A DNA stretch of 44,065 bases, taken from the NCBI GenBank assembly GCA_937925455.1, contig CALEWF010000056.1:1-44065 (forward strand), written 5' to 3'. The notes below the pieces were generated by a model. The model ran no database searches and was not told the origin of the DNA. It saw only the letters and a program-made list of their open reading frames with translations. This stretch comes from an uncultured Flavobacteriales bacterium. GTDB taxonomy: Bacteria; Bacteroidota; Bacteroidia; CAIKAF01. This document shows, piece by piece, positions 177 through 38,807 of the stretch. The stretch's first letter is position 1. Each line of letters opens with the position of its first letter. Position numbers and translations under genes: made by a program.

Positions 177-202
177 TATTATCTAAATTCTAATGACAAA
201 GG

Positions 203-240
203 GGAATAAGAAAGCCGGAATTTGCTCCGGCTTTTTGTTG
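203..240 (-). terminator. Rho-independent (bidirectional-looking) terminator downstream of the RND permease
   Basis: Stem AAGCCGGA (212-219), loop ATTTGC, stem TCCGGCTT (226-233). It is flanked by T-rich runs on both strands (TTTTTGTTG on +, TTTCTTATT on -). It lies 23 nt past the stop at 256. Confidence 0.7.
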
Positions 241-7055: not shown

Positions 7056-7240
7056 GGCTGCTTGGTGCGGCTGTCCGTTACAAGTCCTCGGGGCTCAGCC
7101 ACACATGGCATCGGGGTAGCGGTGTCTTCGTGCCCTCAGCCCCGCTACCCCGTGCCCTGTGGGCTTCGCCCCTGCGGGCTTTTCACTGCCATCCGCAGCA
7201 GTCTGCCTCTACGAGGCGGAGCAACACGTGTTAGCCCCTC
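7056..7240 (+). repeat. GC-rich imperfect-palindrome intergenic repeat, copy B (core 7056-7201 plus a shortened 39-nt 3' module)
   Basis: About 97% identical by eye to the copy D core. The 3' tail TCTGCCTCTACGAGGCGGAGCAACACGTGTTAGCCCCTC shares the CTACGAGGCG(G/A)AG..AACA..CCCCTC part of the module seen in copies C, D and E. Confidence 0.9.
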
Positions 7241-7328: not shown

Positions 7329-8927
7329 TTAAACTATCGAAATCAGGGTTTTTAAATCTGCCAAGGTATTGGCTTCCTCTGCTTTTTTATCGGTACGCCA
7401 ACGAGCAATTCTTGGAAAGCGTAGTGCCACCCCGGATTTATGTCGGGTACTTGGTTGTATGCCTTCAAAGGCCAATTCAAATACCTGCACCGCTTCTACA
7501 CTGCGTACCGGTCCAAATTTTTCAATTGTATGTTGTTTTATCCATCGGTCTAATTGCAAAATTTCTTCATCTTTCAACCCGGAATATGCTTTGGCTATGG
7601 GAACCAATTTTCGTTGTTCGTCCCATACAGCAAATGTGTAATCAGTGTATAAACCAGCTCTTCTTCCATGCCCGGATTGCGCATAAATCATCACAGCATC
7701 AATGGTAAACGGATCTACTTTCCACTTCCACCAGCCTCCTTTTCTTCTTCCAGTACCATATACCGAATCGCGATGCTTTAGCATCAAACCTTCGCTCCCT
7801 TTTTCTGCTGATCGTTGTCTTTCTTGCAACAGAGATTCCCAAGAATCAGCAAAATATAATTCAGAGAGTTTTAATGTATTGGCATTGCATTGATGAACTA
7901 ATTCTTCTAATAATTTTTTTCTTTTCACCAAAGGTTCATTTCGAATATCCATACCCTGATGTTCCAATAAATCATAGGCCATCAGTATCACTGGTATTTC
8001 TTGCAACAGTTTTTTGCTGAGGGTTTTTCTGCCCATCCGCTTTTGTAAAAATTGAAAAGACAGGGGTTTATTATTTTGCCAAGCTAAGATCTCTCCATCA
8101 ATCACGGTGCCTGATGGAAGTTGAGATACCAGCGAATGAAATTCCGGATAGCGATCGGTAACCAACTCTTCGCCTCGTGTCCAAACATAAAGTTGGCCAT
8201 TTCGCACAATCAATTGTGCCCGAATGCCATCCCATTTGTGTTCTGCCAGCCAAGCAGAAGGGTTTTGCTGGATTTGTGAACTATCTTCCAGTGCATACGC
8301 CAAAAAAAACGGATAGGGTTTAGAAAGATGATCAGTGGCTTGAGGCTGCAGAATTAGTTGCTGAAATGTGGTGGTTCTAGGGTCCCAATTTCCCATCAAG
8401 CGGTGGGCGATGATATTTTCTTCCAGTTGAAATGCTTTTGAAATTGCTTTTATAAGCAACCCTTGTGAAACCCCAATACGCAGGCTTCCGGCACTAAGCT
8501 TGTTAAACAAGAATCGTTCGGTTTTGCTTAGTTGCTTCCACAAGGTAATGACTGCTGCTTCTTTGGCTTCTTCTGAATCAAGAGACTGGATATGAAACAC
8601 CTGTTGAATGGTGGTGGCCAATGAATTGGGTTGATGTGTTGGAACTTCCGGTTCGGGGATGATGCCAGCTAAGGTTTCGCCTAAATCGCCTACTGTATGC
8701 CAGGTAGCTTCCACCAACCATTGAGGCAAGCCGGCTGCACGAGCTGCCCAGTTTCTAAGTTGCGTGGTGTTGGCAATACGAGATGGTTTTCGTCCGGTAA
8801 ATAACGCGATGATCCAAAGCCGGTCTTCATCAGAAGCATGAGAGAGGTATTCAGCCAAGAGATTGATTTTTTCCTGGGTTTTGTTGGTTTGATCCAAGGC
8901 TTCAAACAAATCGGCAAAGGCTTTCAT
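7329..8927 (-). CDS. ATP-dependent DNA ligase (ligase-associated DNA damage response type)
   Basis: 532 aa. Adenylation motif I KxDG (AEHKWDGIRAQ) and an OB-fold C-terminus. Overlaps by 4 nt with the upstream MBL-fold exonuclease gene. Confidence 0.9.
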   Translation of the reverse strand: MKAFADLFEALDQTNKTQEKINLLAEYLSHASDEDRLWIIALFTGRKPSRIANTTQLRNWAARAAGLPQWLVEATWHTVGDLGETLAGIIPEPEVPTHQPNSLATTIQQVFHIQSLDSEEAKEAAVITLWKQLSKTERFLFNKLSAGSLRIGVSQGLLIKAISKAFQLEENIIAHRLMGNWDPRTTTFQQLILQPQATDHLSKPYPFFLAYALEDSSQIQQNPSAWLAEHKWDGIRAQLIVRNGQLYVWTRGEELVTDRYPEFHSLVSQLPSGTVIDGEILAWQNNKPLSFQFLQKRMGRKTLSKKLLQEIPVILMAYDLLEHQGMDIRNEPLVKRKKLLEELVHQCNANTLKLSELYFADSWESLLQERQRSAEKGSEGLMLKHRDSVYGTGRRKGGWWKWKVDPFTIDAVMIYAQSGHGRRAGLYTDYTFAVWDEQRKLVPIAKAYSGLKDEEILQLDRWIKQHTIEKFGPVRSVEAVQVFELAFEGIQPSTRHKSGVALRFPRIARWRTDKKAEEANTLADLKTLISIV

Positions 8928-9943
8928 ACTTCTGTAATTTCAGTTTCAGGCTCATTTACTTGTTCGCCACGGAACTGTGTTTTAAGTACCGATGATTTAA
9001 GGCCTTGTTCGCAGAGCCAACGACTAAATAAATCGGTATAACCATGGGTTACCAACACCTGTTCTGCCCCGGTGGCTTGTATGGCTAAATTTAATCCATG
9101 CCAATCGGCATGGTCGCTAAGTACAAATCCGCGATCGGCAGCTTGCCAACGACGGGCACCTCGCATGGCCATCCATCCGCTGGCAACAGCCGTACGGTAT
9201 GGCTCAAACCTTTTGAGCCACGGGCTACCTGCTGCTGATGAAGGGGCTATAACCAAAGCACCTTTGCACCAAGATGCATTAGGTAATTCGCTTACCCGGT
9301 AGGTTTGAGGCAAGACAATTCCGGACCTCCGGCAGGCTTCATTCATAGCATGTGTAGCCCCATGTACAATAATTGGTCCCAGAGAGTTGTCTAAATTTGC
9401 TAAAATACGCTGTGCTTTGCCCAAAGAATAAGCAAAAAGTACGGAACTGATTCCTTCGCTTTGGTTTTTTTTCCACCATTGTTGTATTTGCTGCATCACC
9501 ACCGACTGGGTTTGCCATTGAAAAAAAGGCAATCCAAACGTAGATTCTGTGATGAACGTGTGGCAAGTTACCGGTTCAAAGGGCTCACAAATTCCGTCTG
9601 GCTGAGTTTTATAGTCGCCTGAAATAACCCACACCTCGCCTTTGTATTCCAAGCGTACTTGAGCTGAGCCAACTACATGGCCCGCCGGATGTAAAGAAAT
9701 TGTTACACCGTTGATTGTAAAAGTTTCCTTATATTCTAAACCTTGCACAGCGATATTACCCAACCGGGATTTTAATATCGGAATACTCTGGTGGTGGCAT
9801 AAATAATTTTCACTGCCTGATCGTGCATGATCTGAATGTCCATGGGTGATGATGGCTTTTTTTACAGCTTTCCAGGGATCAATAAACAAATCGGCTTGTG
9901 GGCAGTAAAGTCCATATTCGGTAAGTATTACCAAATCATCCAT
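8924..9943 (-). CDS. Ligase-associated DNA damage response exonuclease (metallo-beta-lactamase/beta-CASP fold)
   Basis: 339 aa with the HxHxDH motif (THGHSDHA). The length and the pairing with the ATP-dependent ligase are typical of this family. Confidence 0.85.
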   Translation of the reverse strand: MDDLVILTEYGLYCPQADLFIDPWKAVKKAIITHGHSDHARSGSENYLCHHQSIPILKSRLGNIAVQGLEYKETFTINGVTISLHPAGHVVGSAQVRLEYKGEVWVISGDYKTQPDGICEPFEPVTCHTFITESTFGLPFFQWQTQSVVMQQIQQWWKKNQSEGISSVLFAYSLGKAQRILANLDNSLGPIIVHGATHAMNEACRRSGIVLPQTYRVSELPNASWCKGALVIAPSSAAGSPWLKRFEPYRTAVASGWMAMRGARRWQAADRGFVLSDHADWHGLNLAIQATGAEQVLVTHGYTDLFSRWLCEQGLKSSVLKTQFRGEQVNEPETEITEV

Positions 9944-15118: not shown

Positions 15119-15319
15119 AGCTGCCTATGGGGCTGTCCGTTCCAAGTCCTCGGGGCTCAGCCACACAGGGCATCGGGGTAGCGGTGTCTTCGTGCCCTCA
15201 GCCCCGCTACCCCGTGCCCTGTGGGCTTCGCCCCTGTGGGCTTTCCACTTCCATCCGCAGCAGACGGGGAAACGGGTGAATCCGCCCCTACGAGGCGAAG
15301 GAACATGCGCCCCCCCTCC
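15119..15319 (+). repeat. GC-rich imperfect-palindrome intergenic repeat, copy C (core 15119-15263 plus a 56-nt 3' module)
   Basis: The core aligns to copy D with about 7 differences, including a 1-nt deletion near the 5' end. The 3' module is ACGGGGAAACGGGTGAATCCGCCCCTACGAGGCGAAGGAACATGCGCCCCCCCTCC. Confidence 0.9.
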
Positions 15320-21247: not shown

Positions 21248-22225
21248 TTAACGTAGTCGTTGTTCCACATATTCAGGAATTTGTTTTTCTTTTTTTTGCT
21301 CCTTCATTTTGGCGATGTACTGATTGTAATTTTCTTTGGCCTTTTCTTTGTCTTTTTTACCATAATATGCATCACCTATCAGCAGCCACCAGGCAGGTTT
21401 TTGCGGGAACCATCGAATGTATGATGTAACTAATGTTAGGGTTTGGTCATATTGCTTCGCTTCGTTGTAATAATTCAGATATTCCGAAAGTATTTCAGAA
21501 AAATCATCGAACTTAAGACCATATAAATCTTTTCCAAATTTTGATTTCAATTCGTTTTCTGTTTTAATTTTCTCCAACCATGCCCAACCTTGGTAAGTAA
21601 AAATGGTTTGTATGAACGATGCGGCTTCTTTAAATTTTCTTTTTCCCGCTTCTTCTTGTGCTTTGGTTCTGGCGACCTGGAGAAGCTTTACAGCTACTTC
21701 TTCGGTATTGATATAAGCCTCCGGATATTTTAATGAATCGTATGTGGCCATGGCTTCTTTGGGTTTTTGAAGTTGCAAAAGCTTTTCAGCCCGGGCTTTG
21801 ATGGCCGGAGAAATATCACTGCGTTCTTCCTTTTCATAGAATGCGCTTTCATTTTTCCAGGAAAATATTCCGCAGATGATTTCCGTTTTACCGGGAACAG
21901 ATGAGCATAGTTCAATACCTTTTTCTGGCAAATAGTTACAACGAACAAAATTTTCCGGATAAAATGTAAGCTGGTGTTTTATTTTCTCTAAAAAAATTAC
22001 TTCCTCATCGTTTACTTCTCCATAAAGCATCAACTCTTTGGTGTTTTTATTGTAGCCTATACAAGCTGCCCGATATTTTTTTGAAAACATTTTAATCCCA
22101 TTGCTCTGCACCGGAATGATGGTAATATGAGAAGGCATGTCCGTTTTTTTAATTGCCGTTTGAGCCGTGGTAATTAAACTTAACAAAACGAAGGTCATCG
22201 TTAAAAAAGTCATTCTTTTAAACAT
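21248..22225 (-). CDS. Hypothetical secreted protein with helical/TPR-like C-terminal half
   Basis: 325 aa with a signal peptide (LSLITTAQT) and a C-terminal TPR-like segment (LLIGDAYYGKKDKEKAKENYNQYI). Confidence 0.4.
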   Translation of the reverse strand: MFKRMTFLTMTFVLLSLITTAQTAIKKTDMPSHITIIPVQSNGIKMFSKKYRAACIGYNKNTKELMLYGEVNDEEVIFLEKIKHQLTFYPENFVRCNYLPEKGIELCSSVPGKTEIICGIFSWKNESAFYEKEERSDISPAIKARAEKLLQLQKPKEAMATYDSLKYPEAYINTEEVAVKLLQVARTKAQEEAGKRKFKEAASFIQTIFTYQGWAWLEKIKTENELKSKFGKDLYGLKFDDFSEILSEYLNYYNEAKQYDQTLTLVTSYIRWFPQKPAWWLLIGDAYYGKKDKEKAKENYNQYIAKMKEQKKEKQIPEYVEQRLR

Positions 22226-22356
22226 ACATTACTTGTTTTTGAGTATTGAAGAAATGCAAACATTATCAAAGGTAGGAATCTTCCTGTTTTTTTGTTGATA
22301 ATTTATAGCTGTTTCATTACAAGAATTAAAAATGATTTTTGATATTTATCCACATC

Positions 22357-25300
22357 ATGCCAAAGTTAAAGATATACAAAGCATCTGCCGGATCAGGAAA
22401 AACATTTCAGTTGGTAAGGGAGTATTTGTTGATTGTGTTTAATAATCCGGATGATTTTCAGCATGTGTTGGGGGTAACCTTTACCAACAAGGCTACCGGA
22501 GAAATGAAAAGTCGGATATTAGAGGAGCTGGACAAGCTTTCGTCGGGGAAGCCCTCTGAACATTTGCATGCATTGATGGAGCATTTTAAAAAACCGGAAG
22601 CTTGGATTAAACAACGAGCTACCGTGTTGTATAGTCGGGCACTTCATCAGTATCATGAATTTCACATACAAACCATTGATAGTTTTTTTCAGCGAATTAT
22701 TCGTGGATTTGCACGCGATATTGGGCTTACTGCCGGTTTTAACTTAGAGTTAGATACCGATACTGTACTAAATATATGTATTGAGGATTTGATGAATGAA
22801 TTGCAGGAAGATAGCGAGCATGGAGATTGGTTGATTCGTTTTGCAGAGCAGCGTATAGAAGACAATAAGCATTGGGATTTGCAAAGCGAATTATTTAAGT
22901 TTTCAAAAGAAGTATTCAAAGAAAAATTTTCCGCCATAGCCGATGATATCATTGCATTTGTTGAAGATAAAAACAAAATGAAAGCCTTATTTTCTACCAT
23001 TCGTTCGCAGGTGAATGATTTTGAAAAAAAAATGGATGAGTTAGGGACGAAAGGATTGGAAATTATAGAGGCATATCATTTGGAAATTGAAGATTTTAGT
23101 TATGGGAAATCTGGATTTGCTTCAGTTTTTCAGAAAGTTAAAAATCAAGATTTTGATTTTGGCACAAGAATATTAGGCGCTCCGAATAATGAAAATGCCT
23201 GGTATTCAAAATCCAAATCAAAAGAAATTATAGAAAAAATTACGAATGTATATCCACTACTTAATCCCGTTTTATGTGAAATTATTGATTTGTACAAGCA
23301 AGAAGGCAAGGTTTATTTTGCTGCTCATAATGCTCAAAAATATTTGTATCAATTAGGAGTATTATCGTTGATTTTACAATATATCCGAAAGTACAGAGAT
23401 GAGCAGGATGTAATTTTAATGCCTGATACGGCGCCGTTAATTCATCAGATTGTAAAGCACAATGAGGAAGCTTTTATCTATGAAAAAACCGGAACCTATT
23501 TTCATCATTTTTTGCTGGATGAGTTTCAGGATACCTCCGAGCTTCAATGGGAAAACTTTAAACCCCTTATCAGTAACAGCATTTCGCAAGATTATGTGAG
23601 TTTATTAGTAGGCGATGTAAAGCAATCCATTTATCGGTTTCGAAACGGTGATTGGCGATTGTTGATGTACAAAGCCCAGCAAGATATTCCATATTCGGAG
23701 GTTATCTCCATGGATACCAACTACCGTAGCGCCGAAATGATTGTACGGTTTAACAATACGCTATTTTCCCTTATTCCACCCATGTTAGGCGAAGGGTTTA
23801 AAAAATTATTTCAGTGTGCAGGTGTTGATTCGGAAGTTCCCGGTTGGTTTGAATTAGCGTATGCAAATCAAGCCCAGCGATTTAACCCCAAAAACGGAAA
23901 AGGGTATATACTGGCACAAAAGTTTCTAAAAGATAAAGAATCAAATAGCCCTGAACCTGCATTAGATGCCATGATTTCGATAATTCAAGATGCCTTGTCA
24001 CGTGGGTATGGTTTGCGAGACGTAGTGATTTTATGTAGGAAATATAACGATGTGGAAAAGGCTTATGATTATCTCTCAACCTATGGTAACCCAGAATGGA
24101 AAATTGTATCTGAAAAATCGTTGCAATTAAAGAATAATGGCTATGTTCGGATGATTTTTTCGGCTCTCAGATGGTTAGCCTATCCGCAGGATTTGATTTC
24201 AAGGGCAAACTTGATTACAGAAGTTGCAAAATATAAGTTAAAAGTTTCAGATCAAGCATTATGGAATAATATTCAAAACCCACCGCCATTGCTTAATGAT
24301 TTTTTTGAGGATGCTGAAAACATTCGCCAGATGGTGATATTGGATGCTATAATTAGAATTCATGAATTGTTTGATGTTGCTGGATTATTTGATCGAAATG
24401 AAGATGTAATTTTTTTTCAAACACTGTTGGATGAGGTGATAGAGTTTATGAGAACCGGCGACCATACATTGGCAGCCTTGGTAGATTGGTTGGATGAAGC
24501 GGGTCTGGAAAAATCTTTACAACAATCAGAATCAATGAATGCCCTTCGCATTCTTACTATACACAAATCAAAAGGTTTAGAATTTCCTATAGTGATTATC
24601 CCATTTTTTAATTGGTCATTAAATCATGAAAATAATACGAATAATATTCTTTGGGAAAAACCCCCGGTTGAATTGGGTTGGGAAGTGCCTGTGATTCCAT
24701 TATCATATAATTCTAAACTTACAAAATCATACTTCGCTGAGCATTATCTCAATGAGCGTTTTGCTGCTTCCATGGATGCGTTGAATTTAATGTATGTGGC
24801 GCTTACCCGGGCAAAAAATGAATTGTATCTGTTTGTACAGGTTAATTCAGAAAGTGATAATAAAAATGAAGACAATTTGCCTAAAAATGTGGGGGAATTG
24901 CTATTTGATAGCATAAAAAGTAAAACAGAAGTAAATGACTCAAGAAATTTATTTGTTTCGCTTTATTCTAATTTTTCTGAATCTGAAATGGTTTTAGAAT
25001 TAGGTGAAAAAGTTGGTTCGAATGAAGAAAAAAAGAAAACGGAAGAATCCTTTTTACAACATGATTTTTTAATGAAACTTCCCTGGAAAAAATTATCTGT
25101 TCAATCACTTTCTGCAAATTATCTGGATGCCATAGGTGAAGAACGAAGAAAAGGAATTGTTATTCATCAGTTACTGTCGAAGTTGAGGCACATGGATGAT
25201 TTTCAGCGACTCATTGCTGAAGTTACAATGTATGGACCTGATGCCGGTTGGATAGCAGAGGAGTTAATTCAATTAAAAAATGAATTTACATCGCACCCAT

Positions 25301-25563
25301 TATTGCATACATGGTTTGATAGTAAGCTTGACGTAATGACAGAGCAATCTATAATTGCTTCGGATGGAAAAACATATCGTCCGGACCGAATTATTAGAAC
25401 AGCGAATGAAATCGTGGTAATTGATTTTAAAACCGGAGAACAACATCCTGAATACTTGCAGCAGGTGAAGCAATATAAAACCATTTTGCAAAATATCTAT
25501 CAAGAAACGGTGAACGCTTATTTGATATATATTTCTCCTTTACAGGTGATTGAAATAGAATAA
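22357..25563 (+). CDS. UvrD/AddA-like ATP-dependent helicase-nuclease
   Basis: Walker A ASAGSGKTF, the DEFQDTS motif, helicase motif VI (VALTRAK), and a C-terminal PD-(D/E)XK nuclease segment (RPDRII...VVIDFKTG). Start at the ATG at 22357. Confidence 0.85.
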   Translation: MPKLKIYKASAGSGKTFQLVREYLLIVFNNPDDFQHVLGVTFTNKATGEMKSRILEELDKLSSGKPSEHLHALMEHFKKPEAWIKQRATVLYSRALHQYHEFHIQTIDSFFQRIIRGFARDIGLTAGFNLELDTDTVLNICIEDLMNELQEDSEHGDWLIRFAEQRIEDNKHWDLQSELFKFSKEVFKEKFSAIADDIIAFVEDKNKMKALFSTIRSQVNDFEKKMDELGTKGLEIIEAYHLEIEDFSYGKSGFASVFQKVKNQDFDFGTRILGAPNNENAWYSKSKSKEIIEKITNVYPLLNPVLCEIIDLYKQEGKVYFAAHNAQKYLYQLGVLSLILQYIRKYRDEQDVILMPDTAPLIHQIVKHNEEAFIYEKTGTYFHHFLLDEFQDTSELQWENFKPLISNSISQDYVSLLVGDVKQSIYRFRNGDWRLLMYKAQQDIPYSEVISMDTNYRSAEMIVRFNNTLFSLIPPMLGEGFKKLFQCAGVDSEVPGWFELAYANQAQRFNPKNGKGYILAQKFLKDKESNSPEPALDAMISIIQDALSRGYGLRDVVILCRKYNDVEKAYDYLSTYGNPEWKIVSEKSLQLKNNGYVRMIFSALRWLAYPQDLISRANLITEVAKYKLKVSDQALWNNIQNPPPLLNDFFEDAENIRQMVILDAIIRIHELFDVAGLFDRNEDVIFFQTLLDEVIEFMRTGDHTLAALVDWLDEAGLEKSLQQSESMNALRILTIHKSKGLEFPIVIIPFFNWSLNHENNTNNILWEKPPVELGWEVPVIPLSYNSKLTKSYFAEHYLNERFAASMDALNLMYVALTRAKNELYLFVQVNSESDNKNEDNLPKNVGELLFDSIKSKTEVNDSRNLFVSLYSNFSESEMVLELGEKVGSNEEKKKTEESFLQHDFLMKLPWKKLSVQSLSANYLDAIGEERRKGIVIHQLLSKLRHMDDFQRLIAEVTMYGPDAGWIAEELIQLKNEFTSHPLLHTWFDSKLDVMTEQSIIASDGKTYRPDRIIRTANEIVVIDFKTGEQHPEYLQQVKQYKTILQNIYQETVNAYLIYISPLQVIEIE

Positions 25564-28463
25564 TGATGCAACCTTTTTTACAAGATATAGCCGATGCATT
25601 GATGAAATTTACTCCGCATGAGTTGGAGAAAATCATCGTGCTTTTCCCTAATCGTCGTGCCATTCAGTTCCTTAAATCCAGGTTGATTGTCAGCGCCCAT
25701 GGTCAATCGTTTATTTTACCTAAAATGCAGGCAATTGATGATTTTGTTGCTTCGTTAGTGCCATTTGCTATAGCCGATGCTGTTTCCATGAATGCTACAT
25801 TGTTTACTATTTTTAAACGATTGGGCATTCATCATGAATCGTATGACTTATTCTTTAGTTGGGGGGAGATGTTGGTTCGTGATTTTGATGAGTTGGATAA
25901 GTATTTGGCAAATCCTGATCAGGTATTTCGTATGTTGCTTGGCGAAAAAGAAATTGCAGGCCAGTTTGCCTATTTAGACGAAGAACAAATCAAAGCCATT
26001 CAACATTTTTGGAGCTCCTTTAATCCGAATAAACTCAGTAAAGAGCAGGAATTATTTCTGGCTTTATGGAAATCGTTGCCAAAAATATATCAACAATTCA
26101 ATCATGAGTTGAGTACTTCCGGTAGAACCTATATGGGGCATGCTTACCGGTTATTGGCAGAAAATCCGGCTTCTTATTTTAATTATCAAATTCATCCTAA
26201 AACCAAGTTTATTATTGCCGGATTTAACTGGATAACTCCAGCGGAAGCAGCTATTTTTACTTATTTAAGAAAACATTACGATATTTCTTTTTATTGGGAT
26301 GTGGATGTCCATTATACCGAACCGGTGATTCATGAAGCAGGGTATTTTTTTAGAAAATACAGTTCACGTTTCCCCTCCAAGTTACTCCCAAGGAACAGTA
26401 TTAATGTATTTAATAAATCCGTTACTTTTTACAATTGTTCGAAGTTTTTAGCGCAAGCGCAGCAAGCAGCACAGGTTATTCGCTCTATTCAACATAAAGA
26501 TGAAACCATTGCCCTGATTCTTCCTGATGAATCTCGGCTACCTGTGGTTTTAGCTGCTTTGGCCGAGCTGGAAGAGTTGAATGTAACCATGGGGATTCAA
26601 ATTAAAAATTCACAAGCTGCATCTTTTGTATCGCAATGGTTAGAATTATTGCTTTTTGCTCGTAAAGAAGGCGAGGAGTATTATTATCATATAACCCGTT
26701 TAAATCATTTCATCCAACATCCCCTTATTATATCCATGCTGGGGGAGGTGGGTTTAAATAATTGGAATAATATCATAAAAAATCTTACTGAAAATATTTT
26801 TGCTATAAATCATTTTCCGGAATGGATGAAACCTTTGCAATATATTCTCACTCCACCGGCTGACGGAATACGTCTGCTTGTTCAGCTCAAAGAATTTTTC
26901 CACAATTACATTCAAAGGGTAGCTGCCAATCAGCATTTATCTGAAGAAGCAAATAAAAATAATATTCAGGGAAATTTTCATACGGAATTAAACCTTGCTT
27001 TTTATCAAGCCTTATCAAAATTAATTCATTCTTGCGTAGAAAATAACTTAGAATTTTCTGTACAAACCGCATCCCGTCTTATACAACGAATGTTGCATCA
27101 AACCCGGGTTCCGTTTCAGTCTGATAGTACAGGGCGAATACAAATCATGGGATTTTTAGAGTCGCAGTGTCTTGACTTTGATCATATATTTATTTTAGAT
27201 TTTAATGAAGGTGTTGTTCCGCCGGGCGTATCGCAAGGATCATACATTCCTTTTTCCATCCGAAAGGGATTTGGCTTACCCGTTCCCGAAGACCATTACC
27301 GGATGTATGCGTATTTCTTTTATCGGCTCATGCATCAATCCAAAACCATGCATTTGTTTTACAACACTCTGGCCGACGGTATTACAAGCAGTGAGCCCAG
27401 TCGTTTTGTGGCACAAATCAAAGCAGAGTGTACTAATATTCAAATTAACGAGTTGAAACAGGATGCCCCGATCGCATTTAATCACGTATTATCCATTGAA
27501 GTACCCAAAACCTCTGAAATCTTAGATGCATTAAAGCGATATACAGATGAATCTAACAGTACCTATCTAACTCCTTCGGCACTGAATCAATACTTAGATT
27601 GCCGACTAAAATTTTATTTTCGATACATTGTAAACTTAGACGAAACCAAAGAAAAGACAGACAAAATAAATCCTGCAACCTTTGGAGATATCCTGCATGT
27701 TGCCATGCAGGATCTTTATTCCGAAGCTATCCAAACTAAAGGAACGGCTGAGTTTTCAAGACAAGACATACAGGGTTTGCATGCAACTATTCCATTATCC
27801 ATAAATCGTGCCTTTCATCAGGTTTTTTATGGGCAAAAACGTAATGAGCCCTTTCGCTTTGAGGGCACGTTATTAATTGCTAAAAATATATTGAAACGCT
27901 ATATTCAATCCATTCTCCAGTTTGATGAAGCCTACGCTCCCATTACGTTATTACGTATGGAGAAAAGAGATGAAATCACCTTGCATTTGGGGGGGAAAAA
28001 CATTCGAATTGGTGGGAAAATTGATCGTTTGGATATATCAAACGGCATAGTTCGCGTGATTGATTACAAAACTGGTTCGAGTGAAAAGAAAACCACATTT
28101 CATTCTATTGAACAACTTTTTGAATTTCATTCCAAAGATCGTCCGGGCTATGTGTTTCAGGTGATGTTGTATGCATACATCACCGACCATTTGATGAAGA
28201 AGGATATCCCCATTCAGCCTGGATTACTCTTTGTACGCGATTCCTTCAAAGAAACATTTCAAACGACCATTCAACAGGTAATTGATAAAAAAACCGAAAC
28301 TGTAAACGATTACAGAACATATAAAAATGAAATAGAAAAAGGCTTAAGTCAAGTAATTGCTGATCTATTTAACCCCGAAATACCATTCTCTCAAACTCCT
28401 CATATAGAAATTTGTAAAAATTGTGCCTACCAAAAGATTTGTCGTAAAGATTTATTAGAATAA
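25563..28463 (+). CDS. AddB-like PD-(D/E)XK nuclease subunit with Fe-S cysteines
   Basis: 966 aa. Its start overlaps the upstream stop by 1 nt. C-terminal nuclease motif (GGKIDRLD...VIDYKTG) is bracketed by one upstream Cys (YLDCRLKFY) and CxxCx5C (CKNCAYQKIC), matching the AddB iron-staple arrangement. Confidence 0.75.
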   Translation: MMQPFLQDIADALMKFTPHELEKIIVLFPNRRAIQFLKSRLIVSAHGQSFILPKMQAIDDFVASLVPFAIADAVSMNATLFTIFKRLGIHHESYDLFFSWGEMLVRDFDELDKYLANPDQVFRMLLGEKEIAGQFAYLDEEQIKAIQHFWSSFNPNKLSKEQELFLALWKSLPKIYQQFNHELSTSGRTYMGHAYRLLAENPASYFNYQIHPKTKFIIAGFNWITPAEAAIFTYLRKHYDISFYWDVDVHYTEPVIHEAGYFFRKYSSRFPSKLLPRNSINVFNKSVTFYNCSKFLAQAQQAAQVIRSIQHKDETIALILPDESRLPVVLAALAELEELNVTMGIQIKNSQAASFVSQWLELLLFARKEGEEYYYHITRLNHFIQHPLIISMLGEVGLNNWNNIIKNLTENIFAINHFPEWMKPLQYILTPPADGIRLLVQLKEFFHNYIQRVAANQHLSEEANKNNIQGNFHTELNLAFYQALSKLIHSCVENNLEFSVQTASRLIQRMLHQTRVPFQSDSTGRIQIMGFLESQCLDFDHIFILDFNEGVVPPGVSQGSYIPFSIRKGFGLPVPEDHYRMYAYFFYRLMHQSKTMHLFYNTLADGITSSEPSRFVAQIKAECTNIQINELKQDAPIAFNHVLSIEVPKTSEILDALKRYTDESNSTYLTPSALNQYLDCRLKFYFRYIVNLDETKEKTDKINPATFGDILHVAMQDLYSEAIQTKGTAEFSRQDIQGLHATIPLSINRAFHQVFYGQKRNEPFRFEGTLLIAKNILKRYIQSILQFDEAYAPITLLRMEKRDEITLHLGGKNIRIGGKIDRLDISNGIVRVIDYKTGSSEKKTTFHSIEQLFEFHSKDRPGYVFQVMLYAYITDHLMKKDIPIQPGLLFVRDSFKETFQTTIQQVIDKKTETVNDYRTYKNEIEKGLSQVIADLFNPEIPFSQTPHIEICKNCAYQKICRKDLLE

Positions 28464-28516: not shown

Positions 28517-28718
28517 GGCTGCTTAATGCGGCTGTCCGTTACAAGTCCTCGGGGCTCAGCCACACAGGGCATCGGGGTAGCGGTGTCTTCGTGCCCTCAG
28601 CCCCGCTACCCCGTGCCCTGTGGGCTTCGCCCCTGCGGGCTTTCCACTGCCATCCGCAGCAGATGGGGCAGCGGGTGAATTCACCCCTACCAGAGAGAGA
28701 AACACACGGTTGCCCCCC
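28517..28718 (+). repeat. GC-rich imperfect-palindrome intergenic repeat, copy D (core 28517-28662 plus a 56-nt 3' module)
   Basis: Used as the reference copy. The central stem pairs 28560-28583 with 28603-28624 (about 23 bp with two 1-nt bulges), and the outer arms pair in nearly constant register. It sits between the convergent addB-like and pth genes. Confidence 0.9.
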
Positions 28719-28737
28719 TTAAAAAACCTATGAAAAT

Positions 28738-28765
28738 GTTAAGATATAATTGTTAAGATATAATT
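28738..28765. repeat. 14-bp perfect tandem duplication (GTTAAGATATAATT x2, plus a partial third GTTAA)
   Basis: Read directly: 28738-28751 equals 28752-28765. It lies between repeat copy D and the pth stop. Confidence 0.85.
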
Positions 28766-31163: not shown

Positions 31164-31200
31164 GGGTATAAAAGTTTATGGCTTTTATACCCTTTTTTAT
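31164..31200 (+). terminator. Rho-independent terminator after tRNA-Leu
   Basis: Perfect 11-bp stem GGGTATAAAAG / CTTTTATACCC (31164-31174 / 31182-31192) followed by TTTTTTATTTTTTT. Confidence 0.85.
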
Positions 31201-33707: not shown

Positions 33708-33729
33708 AAATAACCATTGATTGTTTAGG

Positions 33730-33760
33730 GGCTAACAAAATTTTGTTGGCCTTTTTTTTT
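33730..33760 (+). terminator. Rho-independent terminator after the T9SS protein gene
   Basis: GGCTAACAAAA/TTTTGTTGGCC hairpin followed by T9. Confidence 0.75.
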
Positions 33761-38280: not shown

Positions 38281-38327
38281 TTAAACTCCAGGAAGTCATT
38301 AGAATTTTTATACTGATATAGAGTTTA

Positions 38328-38529
38328 GAGGGGGCGGTCGCATGTTTCTCCGCCTCGTAGGGCGGATACACCCGCTGTCCCGCCTGCTGCGGATGGAAGT
38401 GGAAAGCCCGCAGGGGCGAAGCCCACAGGCCACGGGATAGCGGGGCTGAGGGCACGAAGACACCGCTATTCCGATGCCCTGTGTGGCTGAGCCCCGAGGA
38501 CTTGTAACGTACAGCCGCACCAAGCAGCC
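38328..38529 (-). repeat. GC-rich imperfect-palindrome intergenic repeat, copy E (core 38384-38529, 3' module 38328-38383)
   Basis: The reverse complement aligns to copy D over the full length with about 8 core substitutions, some of them paired across the hairpin. Confidence 0.9.
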
Positions 38530-38807
38530 TAATATCAATAGTTTAGTGACAATATTGGGTTAATAACAATAACAATATTCCTGACCATAGATAGAGTGAT
38601 TTCTTAGTTGGTAAAAGCTATTTTAACGTGCAAAAAAATGGATAAAATTTTTTTAGGCTAAAAAAATGATTTTGGGGGTAATTTTAATATGTATGTGCTT
38701 AAATTTCAATAATATATGACAAAAACTGCTAATGGTTGCCTTTAGAAATTTCTCCTAATAACAAGGGGGGGGTTATGCCGCCTTTTCCTTTTTTTAAGCT
38801 ATCCTGT

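Follow-up and report, generated by a model that had tools for sequence, protein, structure and literature searches.

A GC-rich intergenic hairpin repeated in an uncultured Flavobacteriales bacterium as a probable expanded-apex variant of the Flavo-1 motif

What kind of element is the GC-rich hairpin that recurs between the housekeeping genes of an uncultured Flavobacteriales bacterium, and by what means may it have multiplied there? The stretch of DNA that raises this question, contig CALEWF010000056.1 of assembly GCA_937925455.1, was analysed over its whole length of 44,065 nt (referred to as the window) and carries five copies of the hairpin, A to E, among them copy D, whose 146-nt core (28517-28662, minus strand) combines a Flavo-1-type foot with an 81-nt GC-rich apex. 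A sequence-only reading had left the element unassigned and had named a match to an existing Rfam family as a finding that would remove its novelty. The element is not unassigned, because its foot is homologous to that of Flavo-1, a hairpin motif of Bacteroidota published in 2010 by Weinberg et al. (PMC2864571), as seen from sub-threshold matches and from runs that are identical with a member of the seed alignment. It is a variant of the known Flavo-1 puzzle and not a new kind of element, and very probably represents a lineage-amplified, expanded-apex variant of a Flavo-1-type hairpin.

A Flavo-1-type foot below a long apex

At the Rfam gathering scores, only two tRNAs were reported in the window. 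In E-value mode, Flavo-1 (RF01705) matched copies A, D and E on a consistent strand with 25-26 bits (25.2 bits for A and 26.1 bits for E), while no Flavo-1 match was reported for B and C at E ≤ 5. The gathering score of RF01705 (42 bits) is reached by no copy, since the long insert of the element is penalised. Hence, the novelty of the element is removed in part: homology to an Rfam family was found, yet below its gathering score. The matching strand is the opposite of the one used in the sequence-only reading and proved to be the informative one; it is termed the sense strand, and all strands of copies and modules given below refer to it.

In the alignment to RF01705, the helices and the purine-rich internal loops are kept and an insert of 78-91 nt is placed at the apex. 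The conserved-loop foot GAU.G.AG.GGAAA / UUG.A.CGGA.AGC is present according to both the covariance-model alignments and the comparison with the seed, and in the element it consists of helices split by purine-rich internal loops, CGGAUGG.AGUGGAAAGCCC.. / ..CGAGGACUUG.AACG.A.AGCCG. Two runs of the sense strand (GCAGUGGAAAGCCCGCAGGGGCGAAGCCC...GCCCCGAGGACUUGUAACGGACAGCCGC), of 16 nt and 21/22 nt (AGUGGAAAGCCCGCAG and CGAGGACUUGUAACGGA.AGCC), are identical with the seed member NC_009441.1/2016697-2016781, the sequence of which is GAAGUGGAAAGCCCGCAGCCUGACGAAGGAAGUGCGAGGACUUGUAACGGAUAGCCC (Weinberg alignment, PMC2864571 supplementary file 151). Apex length varies within the Flavo-1 seed alignment, which includes one long form, NC_009613.1/1377002-1377143. 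We take NC_009441 to be Flavobacterium johnsoniae and NC_009613 to be F. psychrophilum.

Taken together, the element shares with Flavo-1 the phylum, the foot with its purine-rich internal loops and a variable apex length, as well as a multi-copy, intergenic occurrence without fixed gene association or known function. In contrast, the short AU-rich stem of Flavo-1 is replaced by an apex of 81 nt with 72% GC, found at this length in all eight copies at hand (five from the window and three from the same lineage). Further differences are the outer flank, which reads CUGCUG.../...AAGCAGCC in the element and UAGCC.../...AAAUAGCU or GCGUGAGG.../...CCCGACC in Flavo-1, a second GC-rich module in most copies, and the near-identity of copies that occur about once per 9 kb.

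The expanded apex is no peculiarity of this lineage. A pattern consisting of the foot of the element and any apex of 60-90 nt, AGTGRAAAGCCCNNAG-N{60,90}-CGAGGACTTGNAAC, was scanned for in metagenomes and retrieved 112 stretches, and the elements extracted from them include 62 non-redundant ones, which mostly form a single hairpin with a Flavo-1 foot. While this foot is conserved, the stem above it is hypervariable yet paired, ranging from AT-rich sequence to more than 70% GC, and it is closed in most members by a conserved apical loop, (A)GCGACC-NNN-GGAAGC(U). RNAalifold placed 28 pairs on 46 members, 20 of which show compensatory double changes. Long-apex relatives at 20 metagenome loci stay below the Rfam gathering score, whereas canonical short Flavo-1 hairpins on shared contigs exceed it (52 bits on L010 and 46.7 bits on L039). 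The element belongs to this widespread long-apex class, having the conserved foot together with an apex of 60-90 nt that forms one continuous stem. A covariance model built from 46 long-apex sequences (R1) assigns 62-71 bits to the eight local copies and at most 10 bits to all else, scores with some circularity, in that the foot pattern of the element had served to select the training sequences and about 27 nt are thus shared by construction.

Within the class, the local variant is distinguished by its outer flank, its additional GC-rich module and the lack of the GCGACC...GGAAGC loop. The apex of the local copies is instead GGCUGAGGGCACGAAGACA, which resembles only GACGAAG of short forms and GAGGGCACGAAG of the metagenome element L094. 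A horizontal origin, considered on account of the GC-rich apex, is not favoured, as such apexes are found repeatedly within the class in hosts that are AT-rich: apex and host GC amount to 0.75 and 0.41 for L036, and to 0.72 and 0.38 for the local element.

Two side observations concern the arrangement of such units. In metagenome Ga0256840, three of five long-apex elements (L037, L060, L073) are preceded, about 60 nt sense-5', by a conserved hairpin module, CTGTCAGGTGC..GCACACTGACAGG..., which occupies the side where the local element carries its second GC-rich module. At L100, two short Flavo-1-type units appear to be nested or arranged in tandem, with the unit GCAGTGGAAAGCCCACAGCGAGTGTAGGGATTGCGGGTAGGGAAGGCGAGGACTTGTAACGGAAAGCCC repeated, which suggests that such units are able to insert into or duplicate within one another.

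Copies, conservation and strand preference

Repeat finding, MAFFT and a covariance-model scan without filters agree on five repeat cores in the window and on none further, located where the sequence-only reading had placed them and all intergenic. In the unfiltered R1 scan of the window, the five copies score 62-71 bits and the runner-up match 9.2 bits. Apart from copy D (R1 match at 28524-28662, minus strand, 71.3 bits), these are copy A at 31-176 on the plus strand (31-169, 69.5 bits), copy B at 7056-7201 on the minus strand (7063-7201, 66.5 bits), copy C at 15119-15263 on the minus strand, with a core of 145 nt (15125-15263, 62.2 bits), and copy E at 38384-38529 on the plus strand (38384-38522, 70.3 bits). 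They are spaced 7-13 kb apart among unrelated genes, and their GC content of about 66% exceeds that of the window (38%).

Differences of the other cores from copy D were counted at 4, 4, 7 and 8 positions, as estimated before by eye. Of the extent of about 146-205 nt given in the sequence-only reading, the 55-nt tail is not part of one unit with the 146-nt core, being a separate module that is 75% identical between copies. This second GC-rich module is absent from copy A and partial in copy B (7202-7238, minus strand), where a hairpin TCTGCC..GGCGGA is followed by ..GCCCC. It has full length in C (about 53 nt, 15264-15316, minus strand), D (56 nt, 28663-28718, minus strand) and E (54 nt, 38330-38383, plus strand), and in copy D opens with a degenerate CATCGGGGTAGCGG repeat and ends in a terminal G/C run. 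The AT-rich flank of copy A (177-209, plus strand) holds the motif TTGTCATTAGAAT, read on the minus strand, and the flank of copy E (38281-38311, plus strand), with the motif (A)AGTCATTAGAAT, begins right behind the stop of a CHASE2 gene (38280).

Conservation declines from the inner core outward. Across the eight cores, mean pairwise identity is 94.8%, with 97.8% in the inner 81 nt and 90.3% in the outer 65 nt; the second module comes next with 75%, and the 34-nt left flank retains a mean of 58%, compared with 47% for control 34-mers further upstream. Two readings fit this gradient, namely copying or homogenisation of the core only, or old copies whose paired stem is maintained by purifying selection. 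The unit held uniform appears to be the 146-nt core, with which the second module and the AT-rich flanks are more loosely associated.

Each strand of copy D folds into a single long hairpin (plus strand, -105 kcal/mol, z = -5.0; minus strand, -110.8 kcal/mol, z = -4.4), in agreement with the whole-length imperfect palindrome, the central stem of about 23 bp and the apical region of about 19 nt that had been described from the sequence. In the eight copies, 99% of 405 pair cells hold standard pairs. Two pairs are compensatory, and three single changes lead to G-U on the sense strand and none to G-U on the antisense strand. The same preference is seen on a larger scale in the 62 long-apex elements, the variable stems of which contain 96 G-U pairs in the sense fold and 47 in the antisense fold. 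One-by-one mismatches in the sense fold are purine-purine in 52 cases, pyrimidine-pyrimidine in 12 and A-C in 6, and the mean minimum free energy is -47.9 kcal/mol for the sense strand and -43.4 kcal/mol for the antisense strand. This bias in G-U pairs, mismatches and folding energy speaks for the sense strand in a single-stranded form, which is compatible with RNA and single-stranded DNA alike.

According to Pfam, the window encodes housekeeping genes only (26 open reading frames (ORFs), with precomputed calls for five more via the strain contig L002). These include an AcrB/HlyD/OEP/TetR efflux operon, an ATP-dependent ligase, FtsX, an AddAB-like helicase and nuclease, pth, L25, PRPP synthase, the CHASE2 protein and RuvC. 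The ATP-dependent DNA ligase (LigD/Lig-family domains) is found at 7329-9943, its start overlapped by a 339-aa partner of unknown family. The AddA/AddB-like pair (UvrD-helicase and PD-(D/E)XK) lies separately from it at 22339-28463. These DNA-repair genes stand directly upstream of copies B and D, two of the five copies. Cumulative GC skew has its minimum at about 22,200-22,340, where gene orientation changes from all minus (256-22225) to mostly plus (from 22339); this could be a replication origin or a mere strand switch, and no dnaA gene is present in the window.

Mode of spread and rival explanations

As to how the hairpin came to be repeated, the sequence-only reading had offered both a mobile hairpin of the REP, ERIC or MITE type (repetitive extragenic palindrome, enterobacterial repetitive intergenic consensus and miniature inverted-repeat transposable element, respectively) and a family of structured RNAs, and both remain live. 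Our tentative preference, held at somewhat below even confidence, goes to a REP/REPIN-like element, active as a single-stranded hairpin and multiplied by copying in trans. This is supported by its behaviour as a repeat: five copies in 44 kb, three more at unrelated loci and broken assemblies. The additional copies bear out the earlier view of a dispersed, hairpin-forming, intergenic repeat family. Among 185,579 species genomes, the exact 22-mer of the apex has a single match, in L001 of the same lineage; it has none in the JGI metagenomes, and the pattern of foot and lower stem has no match in viral contigs. Queries of protein databases with spurious ORFs across the repeat returned four proteins, corresponding to two copies with DNA (L005 and L006) and to two more divergent copies available as proteins only.

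Same-species contigs of other assemblies terminate in or beside the repeat (L002, L003, L004 and L119), as is to be expected when a repeat has many copies. Strain contig L002 is 99.6% identical to the window over 10.6 kb, up to a point about 8 nt short of copy D at its GC-rich end; beyond this edge, the sequence of L002 and L003 is AT-rich, unrelated and free of the element over 120 nt, while a third sample (L119) has the same junction between AddB and copy D as the window. The difference in L002 and L003 is a structural change at the edge of the element and not a clean empty site.

Other repeats were seen near two of the copies. Between pth and copy D, the window contains a perfect 14-nt tandem duplication (AATTATATCTTAAC twice, minus strand, 28736-28763), a site at which L002 and L003 have different sequence. 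In L005 (1690-1960), at least four units of different GC-rich repeats with GTCATTGCGA(C/A)CC...GGCGGG motifs occur within 270 nt beside one of the copies, and a 99-aa GIY-YIG gene lies downstream of them.

In the proposed mechanism, the sense strand alone would act, as a single-stranded hairpin, and the element would be a non-autonomous repeat that is copied in trans to new intergenic sites in the manner of REPs and REPINs. It would depend on an enzyme from another locus of the genome, for which the conserved foot and loops would be the recognition sites. The leading candidate is a Y1/HUH transposase resembling the REP-associated tyrosine transposases (RAYTs). For Y1 transposases of subclass 2.6 in Bacteroidetes, flanking hairpins of an atypical kind with further occurrences in the genome have been reported (PMC6006769), and these enzymes would be the obvious candidates. 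Where a copy is transcribed, it would form a hairpin of about -90 to -105 kcal/mol in the 3'-untranslated region (3'-UTR), which could block 3'-5' decay. Such a block is known for the REPs of E. coli, and REPs stabilise upstream mRNA.

The likeness to REPs and REPINs extends to short extragenic hairpin repeats in a population that resembles a master sequence, found near gene 3' ends and between convergent genes, acting, as proposed for the element, as single-stranded hairpins, persisting for long and requiring no adjacent transposase. Unlike a REP, the element is a single 146-nt hairpin with a conserved part of about 35 nt that is common across the phylum, and the GT[AG]G of REPs is not located at its 5' hairpin foot. 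A local GTAG lies inside the apex stem (GGGGTAGCGG / CCGCTACCCC) and is absent from other long-apex members. With the ERIC/IRU sequences of Enterobacteria, imperfect palindromes of about 127 nt, the element shares an occurrence in transcribed intergenic regions, a copy number that varies between lineages, longer forms (arising by internal insertions in ERIC) and the question of whether function resides at the RNA or DNA level. ERICs differ in belonging to another phylum, in their unrelated sequence and in lacking a hypervariable covarying stem.

Several observations weigh against copying in trans by a REP/REPIN-like mechanism. No RAYT or Y1 gene was seen beside any copy, and a scan of 820 kb of sequence for the RAYT motif (HuH...Y) found none. 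Neither a clean empty site nor a target-site duplication was recovered. The foot and the apical loop are conserved phylum-wide, deeper than is usual for REPs, and the R1 scores that tie the copies to the class are in part circular. In addition, since the second module has diverged by 25% and the core by only 5%, copying may not have been recent, and old copies may have had their core preserved by selection or gene conversion. A further point comes from the 87 ORFs nearest to the 62 long-apex elements, all of which are housekeeping genes by Pfam with one recurrent locus, adk and CNNM/CorC. The intergenic region between these two genes (L010:4103-6128; also L047, L054, L058 and L114) is filled by a long-apex hairpin about 9 nt past the adk stop and antisense to adk in five lineages with 76-93% identity between their adenylate kinases. 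Across these lineages, the stem is altered on both arms with the changes compensated, and this persistence under a covarying stem looks like a host function under purifying selection. Long persistence is also known for REPINs.

A wider form of this idea would treat Flavo-1-type hairpins altogether as the Bacteroidota counterpart of REPINs, i. e. as ancient, vertically persisting replicators in the form of single-stranded-DNA hairpins, whose conserved foot and loops are recognised by a domesticated enzyme, perhaps a Y1 transposase of subclass 2.6, with a burst of one variant in the present lineage. We consider this possible, if doubtful. A paper tying Flavo-1 to REP or RAYT was not found in the literature.

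The strongest rival is a structured-RNA family, comprising small RNA genes or cis-acting elements in 3'-UTRs and intergenic regions, in line with the original proposal for Flavo-1, the purine-rich internal loops and apical loop of which would be bound by a conserved Bacteroidota protein; a large number of regulated loci would then take the place of mobility. On balance, this is rather unlikely yet a serious competitor, and it accounts for the strong covariation and the conserved loops across lineages of 37-72% GC, for the bias of G-U pairs and purine mismatches to the sense strand, and for the retention of the hairpin at the orthologous adk locus with compensatory changes in its stem. In all five contexts that are informative on orientation (B, C, E, L001 and L006), the element follows the stop codon of the upstream gene by 0-90 nt and is so oriented that the transcript of this gene carries its sense strand, and same-strand terminator-like sites are found downstream of copies A and E. 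Yet orientation is mixed in the non-redundant set of the wider class, where 14 co-directional elements are antisense and 6 sense, in addition to 9 divergent and 5 convergent contexts. For F. psychrophilum, a transcriptome study places matches to Flavo-1 on either strand of transcribed regions and many of them where there is no transcription (PMC9723704). Both findings weigh against an obligate role as RNA. Further points against the RNA reading are the lack of an excess of predicted sigma-70 promoters at the copies, the lack of a conserved Bacteroidetes-type promoter (TTTG / TAnnTTTG) beside them by eye, and the lack of an associated gene family. Moreover, five near-identical copies in 44 kb would be unusual for RNA genes.

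A cut-and-paste MITE of about 285 nt, in which the AT-rich ends TTGTCATTAGAAT ... ATTCTAATGACAA would serve as terminal inverted repeats for a DDE transposase encoded elsewhere and the Flavo-1 hairpin would be captured cargo, is improbable. A weak inverted motif of this kind does lie beside some copies, in several of them on both sides (A, B, E, L001 and L006), and this reading is also in line with the residual identity of the left flanks above the control and with ends that resemble TTAA/TA-rich targets. However, the ends of working MITEs are normally their best-conserved part, whereas conservation in the element is lowest in the putative terminal repeats; a flank 13-mer at up to 2 mismatches occurs in only two of the five copies in the window, when chance alone would give about 2.6 matches. 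Furthermore, one side is missing in A and L005, a target duplication is not definable, strain L002 keeps the flank of copy D without the GC-rich part, and long-apex relatives elsewhere lack such ends. A comparison with the Correia/NEMIS and RUP MITEs gives a similar picture: size, intergenic location, AT-rich ends, possible inverted terminal motifs and possible co-transcription agree, but the conserved core is an ancient structured hairpin and not derived from the ends of an insertion sequence (IS), and the terminal motifs are weak and no target duplication was found.

Terminators or purely protective 3'-end hairpins that arose separately at each gene end would explain the proximity to stop codons (a median of 8 nt in the wider class) and the extreme stability of the stems, but are highly improbable. 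A T or U run follows the hairpin on neither strand, and a terminator scan calls none of the elements except for one internal sub-hairpin in copy B, while the genome has ordinary intrinsic terminators elsewhere in the window (209-236, 29385-29364, 31164-31192, 33727-33754 and 38763-38790). Phylum-wide conservation of the foot and a presence in divergent promoter regions are likewise unexpected for terminators. The first of the ordinary sites, a strong terminator-like hairpin (AGAAAGCCGGAATTTGCTCCGGCTTTTT), comes directly after the AT-rich flank of copy A and separates this copy from the 3' end of the AcrB-family gene; it is bordered on either side by T or A runs, which suggests a bidirectional terminator.

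Finally, the orphan guide-RNA scaffolds of the sequence-only reading (IscB/TnpB omega-RNA, IS110 bridge RNA), together with integron attC-type sites, fit in size range and strong structure but are the least credible of all, as the element matches no omega-RNA or bridge-type family of Rfam, no IS200/IS605, IscB/TnpB or IS110 gene lies beside any of the eight copies, and neither the window nor the 87 ORFs near the 62 related elements include a TnpB, IscB, IS110 or IntI gene. The likeness to attC is that of a strand-specific single-stranded DNA hairpin directly downstream of ORFs, with extrahelical bases and with ends that are conserved around a variable centre; unlike attC, the element has no R boxes (RYYYAAC / GTTRRRY), integrase or cassette array, its copies lie far apart among housekeeping genes, and the orientation of the wider class to the upstream gene is mixed. 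As had been stated before, no mobility gene adjoins the copies: Pfam found no transposase, reverse transcriptase, RAYT, TnpB or IS110 in the window, nor any mobility gene among the 87 nearest ORFs. For a CRISPR array, there was no supporting evidence.

Meaning for the Flavo-1 family

Flavo-1 is among the most numerous "small RNA" families of Rfam, and its function is unknown. The variant described here behaves as a multiplying repeat: its copies are nearly identical, assemblies break at it, and strains differ at its edge. The wider class, in turn, bears the marks of long-term constraint, i. e. a conserved foot and loop, a covarying stem, strand bias and retention behind adk in five lineages. 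On the practical side, the repeat fragments the assemblies of this lineage and is missed by Rfam. Whether such hairpins are RNA genes or REP-like DNA elements is now directly testable in cultured Flavobacterium. If they were indeed a counterpart of REPINs, an "RNA motif" that has been an orphan for 16 years would receive a mechanism, and relationships of the REPIN-RAYT type would reach into a new phylum with a very different, deeply conserved hairpin.

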